Source: a virus | Lineage: Duplodnaviria; Caudoviricetes | Length of the DNA stretch: 64,000 nucleotides | IMG/VR virus record: IMGVR_UViG_3300028832_000004 | Span: 63,988 to 127,987 of that record | Direction: 5' to 3' (one strand) | In this document: positions 3,567-22,778 of the stretch, one piece after another | Position numbering within the stretch: the stretch's first letter is position 1 | How the letters are laid out: every line of letters begins with the position of its first letter | Notes under the pieces: model-generated | The model's database searches: none | What the model was told of the DNA's origin: nothing | The model's input: only the letters and a program-made list of their open reading frames with translations | Position numbers and translations under genes: made by a program

Positions 3567-3640
3567 AACGCGTTACCGGACTCGAACCAGTGGCTTACCG
3601 GGTGTATCCGCCCGAGCTCTACCAACTGAGCTAAACGTGT
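3567..3640 (-). tRNA. atypical tRNA-like gene, 8-nt anticodon loop CGGATACA (Ile-GAT-like)
   Basis: ACACGTT/AACGCGT acceptor (1 mismatch), D arm GCTC-AGTTGGTA-GAGC, TCGGG/CCCGG stem, T arm ACTGG-TTCGAGT-CCGGT; no U33. Confidence 0.7.
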
Positions 3641-4056: not shown

Positions 4057-4129
4057 GGGCAGGAGCCGGACTCGGACCGGCAACCTAGGAATTAGTATAT
4101 TCCCTGCTCTACCATTGAGCTATCCCGCC
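4057..4129 (-). tRNA. atypical tRNA-like gene, 8-nt anticodon loop TATACTAA
   Basis: GGCGGGA/TCCTGCC acceptor, D arm GCTC-AATGGTA-GAGC, GGGAA/TTCCT stem, T loop TCCGAGT. Confidence 0.75.
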
Positions 4130-4149
4130 ATAGTCCTTGTGGTTGATAG

Positions 4150-4430
4150 TCACTTTTCGTTCGGGAGTAGCCGAACGAGCCCTGAAGGATGCCGGGCGCT
4201 CCGTCTTCCCACCCTATTGACGGAACAGAGGGAAACTACTCCACACGGGTAATCAGCCCGTACTACGTAGCCGGTCCTGATGCAGTTTGGCCCTCCACCG
4301 AGCACTGCTTAGTCGGTAGCCGTAGCATCCGACCTACATCAGTCAGTTTTCCGATTTCCTTCAGCCTAATGCGGTCTCCAGCGCTTTGCCTCGGTCCGCT
4401 TCGCTTATCACGGTCACCTTGGCAAAACCT
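4150..4430 (-). ncRNA. large multi-helix structured RNA, unclassified
   Basis: At least six hairpins, long-range CTGAAGGA/TCCTTCAG helix and a GAGTAG/CTACTC loop pairing; no convincing ORF. Confidence 0.45.
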
Positions 4431-4435
4431 CATCG

Positions 4436-4551
4436 GGAGGTGATTAAATATACATACCAAATGCTCTACACGTTGGCAGGTGCTTCGCCCCGTCTGTGAC
4501 CTCGGCGTGCAACTTGCGTATCGGTATCCCTGTCGAAACCAAGGCACCCCC
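4436..4551 (-). ncRNA. miniature tmRNA-like RNA (no mRNA-like domain, no T arm)
   Basis: GGGGGTG-CCTTGGTTTCGACAGGG start, GCACGCCGAGG and AACGTGTAG helix-2 hallmarks, 3' CACCTCC giving G3.U70. Confidence 0.65.
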
Positions 4552-4557
4552 GATAGT

Positions 4558-4746
4558 TTAAACCTGAACCGGAGCCTGAGCTTCAGCCTTCGGAGCCTTG
4601 GCGGCCTTTTCAGCGGCCCGTTCAGCCTTGCGCTGCTCACGGAGCGGGGTCAATTCGGCGAGAACCTGCGATGTATCTTTTCCACCCTTCTTAAGGGTCG
4701 ACAGCTTATGTGTGAGCTTGCGAATCTTCAACTGCAATTCGGTCAT
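4558..4746 (-). CDS. small basic Lys/Ala-rich protein
   Basis: ATG 4746 after AAGGAG; CGTATATT -10 at about 4788-4795. Confidence 0.65.
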   Translation of the reverse strand: MTELQLKIRKLTHKLSTLKKGGKDTSQVLAELTPLREQRKAERAAEKAAKAPKAEAQAPVQV

Positions 4747-10939: not shown

Positions 10940-11260
10940 AATGGATATGGCTCATTATCGGATGCTTCTTTTGGATAATCGGATGGATTATCCAGCTAAT
11001 ATGTATTTGGACCCATTCGTTGCTCAATTGAATTGAAGAATGGCTCGACTACTGCGAATATCACATTAACAGGTGTGGCCGATGAAAATCTTCCGCTGCG
11101 GCAAATGCCATAAACATTTCCTCGCCGAATACGAGGTGAATAAATGGACGATCGGATGGTGTCCGGAATGCAAGGCCATCCGCCGAATTTACTTCGAGCG
11201 CGAGGATTAACGTGCCATTGTGAATTGATGTTCGTATATTATTCAACAAAGGAAAATCAC

Positions 11261-11344
11261 ATGAAGCAGTATTACGCAAATAATTTCAATTTTGAAGCAG
11301 CGGCCAGTTCCGAGGCTTCGATCTTGCATATACCGCAGCGGTGA
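11261..11344 (+). CDS. putative attenuator leader peptide MKQYYANNFNFEAAASSEASILHIPQR
   Basis: CGTATATT -10 at 11233-11240, AAAGGAAA RBS, 27 codons, ends 25 nt before a terminator that precedes the tRNA cluster. Confidence 0.6.
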   Translation: MKQYYANNFNFEAAASSEASILHIPQR

Positions 11345-11369
11345 TAAACTCCAAAAGAAGTGTAAATGG

Positions 11370-11401
11370 AATCCGCTGCATAAACAGCGGATTTTTTATT
11401 T
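11370..11401 (+). terminator. intrinsic terminator immediately upstream of the tRNA cluster
   Basis: AATCCGCTG-CATAAA-CAGCGGATT then TTTTATTT. Confidence 0.75.
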
Positions 11402-11405
11402 ATAT

Positions 11406-11477
11406 GGCGCCATAGGCAAGCGGTTACGCCTCCGGAATTTCACTCCGGCAACTGCGGTTCGACTCCGCATGGCGCTA
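11406..11477 (+). tRNA. tRNA-Glu(TTC)
   Basis: Cloverleaf; CCGGA-ATTTCAC-TCCGG; T arm TGCGG-TTCGACT-CCGCA; no encoded CCA. Confidence 0.9.
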
Positions 11478-11488
11478 CTAATTATTAC

Positions 11489-11573
11489 GGGCAGTTATGC
11501 AAGCGGCTTTAAAGCACGGTGACTGTAAATCATCTCCCTAACGGGTTCGGGGGTTCGAATCCCTCACGGCCCA
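11489..11573 (+). tRNA. tRNA-Tyr(GTA)
   Basis: GGTGA-CTGTAAA-TCATC, long variable arm, TTCGAAT T loop. Confidence 0.9.
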
Positions 11574-11579
11574 TTATAT

Positions 11580-11652
11580 TGGATTGTAGCTCAATTGGTA
11601 GAGCGCTTGGCCGTTAACCAAGATGTTGCAGGTTCGAGTCCTGCCTTTCCAG
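11580..11652 (+). tRNA. tRNA-Asn(GTT), C33 variant
   Basis: CTTGG-CCGTTAA-CCAAG; two T-T mismatches in the acceptor stem; G73. Confidence 0.85.
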
Positions 11653-11658
11653 CTAAAC

Positions 11659-11740
11659 GGAAGCGTCCCACAACTGGTGGTGGAGCGGTCTTGAAAACCG
11701 CCGGCCATAAGGTTTGGGGGTTCGAATCCCTCCGCTTCCG
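11659..11740 (+). tRNA. tRNA-Ser(TGA)
   Basis: GCGGT-CTTGAAA-ACCGC, long variable arm, G73. Confidence 0.9.
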
Positions 11741-11744
11741 CTAT

Positions 11745-11831
11745 AGAGGCGTGGGTGAGTGGTCTAAACCGCCTCCCTGCTAAGGAGGTACTCTGAGATA
11801 CGAGTCGCTGGTCCGAATCCAGCCGCCTCTA
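11745..11831 (+). tRNA. tRNA-Ser(GCT)
   Basis: CCTCC-CTGCTAA-GGAGG, long variable arm; T loop TCCGAAT, A73. Confidence 0.85.
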
Positions 11832-11900
11832 CGAATTTGCCTAATCTGTTTCAACTTGCCGATCGGCCCTTTCGTATATTTAGATGTACCTGATCCTATC

Positions 11901-11938
11901 AAGCCCCGGACGCCTCTTCCATTGCATCCGGGGCTTTC
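11901..11938 (+). terminator. terminator after the tRNA cluster
   Basis: AAGCCCCGGA..TCCGGGGCTTT. Confidence 0.55.
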
Positions 11939-22701: not shown

Positions 22702-22778
22702 TGGCAGTTTTGGGAATCGAACCCATCATCGTACTAGCTTTCGAAAGCTAGGTGCTCTCCCGACTGAGCTATACTGCC
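22702..22778 (-). tRNA. atypical tRNA-like gene, 8-nt loop TTTCGAAA (Arg-TCG-like)
   Basis: GGCAGT/ACTGCC acceptor, GCTC-AGTCGGGA-GAGC, palindromic anticodon arm CTAGCTTTCGAAAGCTAG, TGGG-TTCGATT-CCCA. Confidence 0.75.

Follow-up and report, generated by a model that had tools for sequence, protein, structure and literature searches.

The tRNA array of the uncultured phage described here appears to be preceded by a ribosome-mediated (leader-peptide) transcription attenuator, a reading in which we place considerable confidence, and the phage probably makes its tRNAs only when certain codons of a short leader ORF, the sensor codons, are decoded slowly. At the level of sequence the region seems to possess every feature by which attenuators of the trp/ilv type are recognised. 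A short ORF with a predicted ribosome-binding site lies directly downstream of a putative promoter, and an intrinsic terminator is predicted between this ORF and the tRNA genes, with no apparent promoter in between. According to the fold models the end of the ORF can form an antiterminator that would exclude the terminator and whose 5' strand could be reached by a ribosome standing on the stop codon. Finally, the leader seems to be enriched in codons of the tRNAs it would control, imperfectly so for Phe and Ala. A preliminary description of this DNA had proposed just such a promoter, leader ORF and antiterminator/terminator switch for the tRNA array, and the comparison of 11 versions of the cassette lends support to it. 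The -10 element, ribosome-binding site, ORF, 9-bp terminator and tRNA-Glu gene that it listed were all found again at the same coordinates.

Genome context and the tRNA array

The window, a stretch of 64,000 nucleotides to which all coordinates refer unless a locus is named, forms the second half of a virus record that is complete at 127,987 bp and bears direct terminal repeats. A search of GenBank phages returned generic tRNA similarity only and no relative. The whole 128-kb genome contains five standard tRNA genes, all of them inside the array (11406-11832), and additionally three tRNA-like genes with abnormal anticodon loops. The array is encoded on the plus strand and consists of tRNA-Glu (UUC; 11406-11478, 54.6 bits), tRNA-Tyr (GUA; 11489-11573), tRNA-Asn (GUU; 11580-11653), tRNA-Ser (UGA; 11659-11741) and tRNA-Ser (GCU; 11745-11832). 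Genes for tRNA-Ala and tRNA-Phe are absent from the genome of this phage. A hairpin read from the sequence 3' of the array (11903-11934, plus strand) has a weak T-run and possibly marks the end of the transcription unit; the related locus L002 carries a clearer terminator at the matching place. When L002 was aligned with the window, its tRNA-Ala proved to be a clean additional gene.

Upstream of the cassette a 45-aa zinc-ribbon ORF (11073-11210, plus strand) ends one base 5' of the -35 element. Its weak matches were Pfam Zn_ribbon_8 and a PHROG that bears the annotation translational regulator; the ORF is kept in L002.

In another element of the window (4057-4560, minus strand) positions 4435-4551 match tmRNA below threshold, with 30.8 bits against a gathering score of 47. 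Conserved non-coding sequence of about 300 nt comes next, and after it a tRNA-like gene (4057-4129, minus strand) whose anticodon loop is not of 7 nt. Homologues of this element in L011 and L027 are located upstream of a normal tRNA-Met(CAU).

Related cassettes and their mobility

Relatives were collected through homologues of the neighbouring 172-aa gene and their contigs, and then by a leader-specific DNA pattern scan of viral and metagenome contigs. Together with the window this gave 20 loci representing 11 distinct cassette versions, 10 of them beyond the window, from related metagenomic phages. From these versions the anatomy, conservation, covariation and codon match of the leader cassette could be read off directly.

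In the window and in L002 the cassette is located between the small zinc-ribbon gene and the 172-aa gene, whereas in L005, L006, L014 and L028 the whole unit is found on the opposite strand, downstream of the 172-aa gene and behind another terminator. Despite this variation in context and strand a tRNA starts 146-165 nt after the ATG in all 20 loci that match the leader pattern, and we conclude that the leader travels with the array. Among the 121 matches listed in a generic scan of viral contigs for promoter, Shine-Dalgarno sequence and ATG, none had a tRNA within 600 nt, and no further members of the cassette family were among them. Distant homologues of the 172-aa gene (P0034 and P0050) had no tRNAs within 10 kb, and in L008 and L027 tRNAs are present without any leader.

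Some arrays of the family are disrupted. L008 (2157-2422) carries a degenerate array which has lost the leader and the genes from Glu to Asn; of tRNA-Asn a 3' remnant survives, joined to a called 59-aa ORF, and the array is reduced to tRNA-Ser(CGA) and tRNA-Ser(GCU). The arrays of L005 (2684-3367, minus strand), L013 and L019 are split by insertions of about 0.8 kb. The insertion of L005 is a 227-aa ORF without a clear Pfam family, and tRNA-Ala is missing from its array. Directly upstream of relocated leader cassettes lies about 190 nt of conserved non-coding DNA, a unit that has a -10-like element and a terminator of its own (L028, 12090-12290; L006, 5270-5460; L005, 3800-3990; all minus strand), for which no match was found in Rfam.

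Promoter and ribosome-binding site

The putative promoter of the cassette is of the sigma70-like class. It is composed of a -35-like hexamer, GTGCCA (11212-11217, plus strand), and a -10 hexamer, TATATT (11235-11240, plus strand). The position of the former is kept in all 11 versions, where it reads GTGCCA, GTGCCG, TTGCCG or, in one version, the perfect TTGACA; the latter is invariant. The spacer is exactly 17 nt throughout, with letters that vary freely.

The -10 hexamer lies within a recurrent motif, GTATATTAT, of which the window has four copies against 0.45 expected (3735, 11234, 22833 and 28495). Three of the four sit upstream of tRNA or tRNA-like genes, which suggests that the motif may mark a promoter class dedicated to small RNAs. 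Two of these genes stand alone (3567-3640 and 22702-22778, both minus strand). They score above the Rfam tRNA threshold, have 8-nt anticodon loops and are assigned four-base anticodons by ARAGORN. Each has the same -10 type upstream as the cassette, but neither has a leader ORF and terminator.

The Shine-Dalgarno sequence AAAGGAAAA (11248-11256, plus strand) places AGGA 7 nt 5' of the ATG, and AAAGGAAA is almost invariant at this site across the versions. At the other end of the leader the preliminary description had seen no room for a separate tRNA promoter. This holds for the whole family, the gap between the terminator and the first tRNA being only 12-25 nt in every version.

The leader reading frame and its codons

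The leader ORF (plus strand) comprises 27 codons from the ATG at 11261 and a TGA at 11342-11344. The preliminary description had made its reading depend on the conservation of this ORF, and conserved it is: the frame measures 84 nt in all 11 versions, with zero indels, whereas its flanks, the 5' UTR and the downstream spacer, differ in length between versions. Stops close both alternative frames in every version.

Amino-acid replacements outnumber synonymous changes between leaders (for example 15 vs 2), yet they are confined to a set of six residues. In all leaders codons 4-21 are limited to Phe, Tyr, Asn, Ala, Glu and Ser, with a rare Ile, and the arrays behind them consist of varying subsets of tRNAs for the same Phe, Glu, Ala, Asn, Tyr and Ser. 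Such a pattern fits selection on the composition of the leader rather than on the function of a peptide. The sensor codons of the window (codons 4-21, 11270-11323, plus strand) specify two Tyr, five Ala, three Asn, two Phe, two Glu, three Ser and one Ile, so that 17 of 18 belong to the family-wide tRNA set (p=1.5e-7); they are mixed and do not form runs of a single amino acid. No 18-residue window of 152 predicted proteins reaches this proportion, and a six-frame translation of the 128-kb genome contains only one stop-free stretch that does.

The two Tyr, three Asn, two Glu and three Ser codons counted in the preliminary description, and the 23 distinct codons among the 27, are indeed present in the window leader. 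Taken together, codons for these four amino acids (10 of 26) are modestly enriched relative to the phage proteome (expected 0.207, binomial p=0.029). It went too far, however, in equating the leader composition exactly with the identities of the downstream tRNAs: five Ala and two Phe codons have no matching tRNA gene in the genome. Moreover, the TCC Ser codon is no obvious target of either Ser tRNA.

The suggestion that leader codons co-vary with tRNA content among relatives fared differently for different amino acids. It holds for Ser, which is confined, within codons 4-21, to leaders followed by an array with a tRNA-Ser, a co-variation based on about three lineages: the window and L002 have three Ser codons each and two tRNA-Ser genes per array, L012/L019 combine one AGT codon with tRNA-Ser(GCU), and the remaining eight versions have neither a Ser codon in this interval nor a tRNA-Ser. 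For Phe and Ala the relationship is weak or negative. Every leader has at least two Phe codons but just four of the 11 arrays have tRNA-Phe, and the numbers of Ala codons do not follow the presence of tRNA-Ala. The closest agreement was found in L014 and L016, where the leader set (Ala, Glu, Phe, Asn and Tyr) is identical to the array set; by simple arithmetic two random five-member sets of amino acids would coincide once in 15,504 cases.

It might be argued that the ORF is simply a small gene of the usual phage kind, followed by a terminator of its own, that the tRNAs are transcribed by constitutive, leaky read-through and that the complementarity described below has no regulatory role. Small ORFs are common in phages, the match to the tRNAs is imperfect for Phe and Ala, and the terminator is strong and wins at equilibrium, all of which would suit such a gene. 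A folded or interacting protein would not, however, be expected to confine its replacements to six residues, and the composition of the leader is unique among the predicted proteins of the genome. The cassette always moves with the tRNA array, and the pairing between the end of the ORF and the terminator arm co-varies, including a pair with a base of the terminator loop. We therefore consider an ordinary gene improbable.

Terminator and antiterminator

The intrinsic terminator (11370-11397, plus strand; segment 3 with segment 4) has a 9-bp stem with arms at 11370-11378 and 11385-11393, a 6-nt loop and a T-run at 11392-11397. Its stem ends 12 nt before tRNA-Glu. Across the versions the stem has eight different sequences; the hairpins all lie between -12 and -22 kcal/mol, and a T-run follows each of them.

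The antiterminator (11335-11379, plus strand; segment 2 with segment 3) is formed by pairing of the end of the ORF with the 5' arm of the terminator. As the preliminary description had noted, GCAGCGG (11335-11341) and CCGCTGC (11373-11379) are exactly complementary, and an inner helix of TCCA (11350-11353) with TGGA (11367-11370) is present as well. In most versions the inner helix consists of UUUCCA and UGGGAA and extends the antiterminator pairing. In the family as a whole the strand consists of the stop region and the two or three codons before it, which pair with the 5' arm and in some versions also with the terminator loop. When the nascent RNA was folded up to the terminator loop, the antiterminator was the minimum-energy fold in all 11 versions; its energy of -13.9 kcal/mol in the window and -13 to -23 kcal/mol in the relatives is comparable to that of the terminators.

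Several observations indicate that this pairing is maintained. In alignment A3 85% of the antiterminator cells are paired, against 36-43% with slid partners, and seven pairs show double-sided changes. The GCAGCGG/CCGCUGC pairing of the window is replaced by GCAGUGG/CCACUGC in L012. The covariation score was 0.245 versus 0.139±0.019 after shuffling and was reached by 0 of 500 shuffles, although the shuffle statistics overstate independence because the 11 versions are related, and the structures scored (antiterminator and leader hairpin) were derived from the same sequences. Duplexes of cognate ORF ends and arms had -14.4 kcal/mol and non-cognate ones -11.8 kcal/mol, and only 76 of 40,320 permutations were as good. 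In one of the covarying pairs the first base of codon 25 is matched by a base of the terminator loop. Since it cannot be explained by the terminator, this pair is specific to the antiterminator.

A second helix between GAGGAG (codons 18-19) and a terminator arm of the CCTCC type was considered and rejected, because L015 combines a CCTCC-type terminator with a leader lacking GAGGAG, and in L014 GAGGAG is present but the arm is another. The window leader, and no other, carries a second copy of GCAGCGG in the sensor region (11297-11303, codons 13-15). It is likewise complementary to the 5' arm and could serve as a second antiterminator strand or be a product of chance.

The untranslated transcript has a further fold. 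Its minimum-energy structure contains a leader hairpin (11251-11350, plus strand; segment 1 with segment 2), which may act as an anti-antiterminator or pause hairpin. In full-length folds the Shine-Dalgarno site and the 5' half of the leader pair with the 3' half and the stop region, so that the Shine-Dalgarno region doubles as the 5' strand of a long-range helix with the sequence right after the stop, and the terminator forms too. The helices of the hairpin are 85-92% paired across the versions, with double-sided changes at three pairs, and the leader region is far more stable than its shuffles (z=-5.0). The 1:2 hairpin appeared in all full-length folds. Before the 3' arm is present, the 1:2 and 2:3 structures have about the same energy and the preferred state depends on the version.

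These folds might also be expected of a regulatory or processing RNA that codes for nothing and binds, for example, a protein or, in the fashion of a T-box, a tRNA; the open frame would then be a coincidence. This idea agrees with the three conserved, covarying helices and with a Shine-Dalgarno sequence that is sequestered in the full-length fold. It does not account for an 84-nt frame that is free of indels in 11 versions with indels in its flanks and stops in its other frames, nor for the proper distance between Shine-Dalgarno sequence and ATG, and the restriction to six amino acids would be meaningless outside the reading frame. In addition, neither the T-box nor any of the Rfam leader families (Trp, His, Leu, Thr, Phe and others) gave a match at gathering score in the window, and a permissive Rfam search of 11150-11450 returned only unrelated families below threshold, mostly over the terminator hairpin. 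A purely non-coding role thus appears very improbable. The covarying antiterminator, a frame kept without conservation of the peptide and the strict association with the array argue against this explanation and the ordinary gene alike, and for an attenuator.

How the proposed attenuator may work

Translation of the leader, its kinetic coupling to transcription and the direction and size of the response are what we infer from this anatomy. Transcription would begin at GTGCCA-N17-TATATT, and a ribosome would load on the 27-codon leader during ongoing transcription. If codons 4-21 (Phe, Tyr, Asn, Ala, Glu and Ser) are decoded quickly, the ribosome would reach the last codons and the stop, where it would cover the 5' strand of the antiterminator. 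The terminator could then form, and transcription would end 12 nt before tRNA-Glu. If, however, charged tRNA for any one of the sensor codons is scarce, the ribosome would stall at or before about codon 21. This would leave the last codons free to pair with the emerging 5' arm, blocking the terminator and permitting read-through into the tRNA genes. In a leader that is not translated at all, pairing of the Shine-Dalgarno site and the 5' half with the 3' half may again favour termination. Because the tRNAs of the array decode sensor codons, the arrangement would amount to direct negative feedback on tRNA supply, and the circuit would hold these tRNAs at the level that translation demands.

Folding of the nascent RNA under a ribosome-footprint mask is consistent with this scheme in five versions (L006, L011, L012, L014 and L016), in which the antiterminator remained intact with A-site codons up to and including 21 and was broken from codon 22 onwards. 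The switch coincides with the end of the sensor codons. With the same crude measure no switch was resolved in the window or in L002. When the masks were applied to the full transcript at equilibrium, the terminator won at every ribosome position. Any switch must therefore be kinetic, as it is in classical attenuators.

We lean towards regarding the cassette as a self-contained and mobile phage module for 'tRNA on demand', in which a roster-bearing leader would sense shortage by the speed of the ribosome and release exactly those tRNAs; such a module may also counter depletion or cleavage of host tRNAs. If this is true, the sensed molecule and the output are one and the same, and the module would exert homeostatic control over decoding capacity during infection.

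Counter-defence might even be the purpose of a working attenuator, as the preliminary description inferred: anticodon nucleases or infection-triggered decay would deplete host tRNAs, and the resulting stall would trigger the synthesis of replacements. By construction the circuit would respond to tRNA depletion. Phage tRNAs are reported to replace host tRNAs that are lost in infection or cleaved by nucleases, and tRNAs for Tyr and Asn are among the known nuclease targets. On the other hand, the sequence gives no hint that the trigger is a nuclease, a roster of six amino acids is broad for one specific nuclease, and the same stall would result from ordinary demand caused by a mismatch in codon usage or by high translation of late genes. 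A trigger of this kind is compatible with the cassette and purely conjectural, the data treated here being the same for it and for demand-driven feedback; we think it rather unlikely that counter-defence is what the attenuator is for.

To our knowledge discussions of phage tRNA genes usually turn on their presence alone, as a means of matching codon usage or of replacing degraded or cleaved host tRNAs, and we are aware of little work on the regulation of their expression. A literature search whose coverage took in few of the subscription journals yielded no description of phage tRNA genes controlled by an attenuator. The novelty would thus lie in the application of leader-peptide attenuation, a known mechanism, to phage tRNA arrays, which as a group would be a new class of target for a textbook mechanism. 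Phages would be monitoring the speed of decoding codon by codon, and from the roster in a leader one could predict which tRNAs are treated as limiting by the phage. A further use of the module might be as a compact sensor for the availability of tRNAs.

Comparison with known systems

Attenuators that respond to more than one amino acid are known from enterobacteria. The ilvGMEDA leader senses Ile, Leu and Val and the thr leader Thr and Ile, while trpL is the prototype of the class. Like these leaders the phage device has a short ORF close to the promoter that abounds in sensor codons, for several amino acids as in the multivalent leaders, and alternative 2:3 and 3:4 helices with an intrinsic terminator; a 1:2 helix is predicted in addition. 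In the phage device as in the leaders of the trp/ilv type the stop codon adjoins segment 2, and a ribosome that finishes the ORF would therefore favour termination. The roster of the phage differs in that it covers six amino acids and is mixed rather than arranged in runs, and the device, carried by a phage, moves as a cassette.

A T-box also senses tRNA charging through a choice between terminator and antiterminator. It binds the uncharged tRNA directly and needs no ORF, whereas the phage device has a conserved frame which is predicted to be translated. E. coli pheV was considered as a precedent and rejected, since it has a plain promoter directly before the tRNA and no leader ORF. In the pheST attenuator, with its pheM leader, a component of the decoding machinery is adjusted by slow decoding of the leader's own codons. 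There, however, the target is an aminoacyl-tRNA synthetase, a single amino acid is sensed and the system is chromosomal, while the phage device would control the tRNA genes directly. The same point separates it from ilvGMEDA, thr and trp, where biosynthetic enzymes are controlled: because the controlled genes of the phage encode tRNAs, the output would be the sensed molecule itself, which would make this a rare case of a sensor whose product is what it senses.
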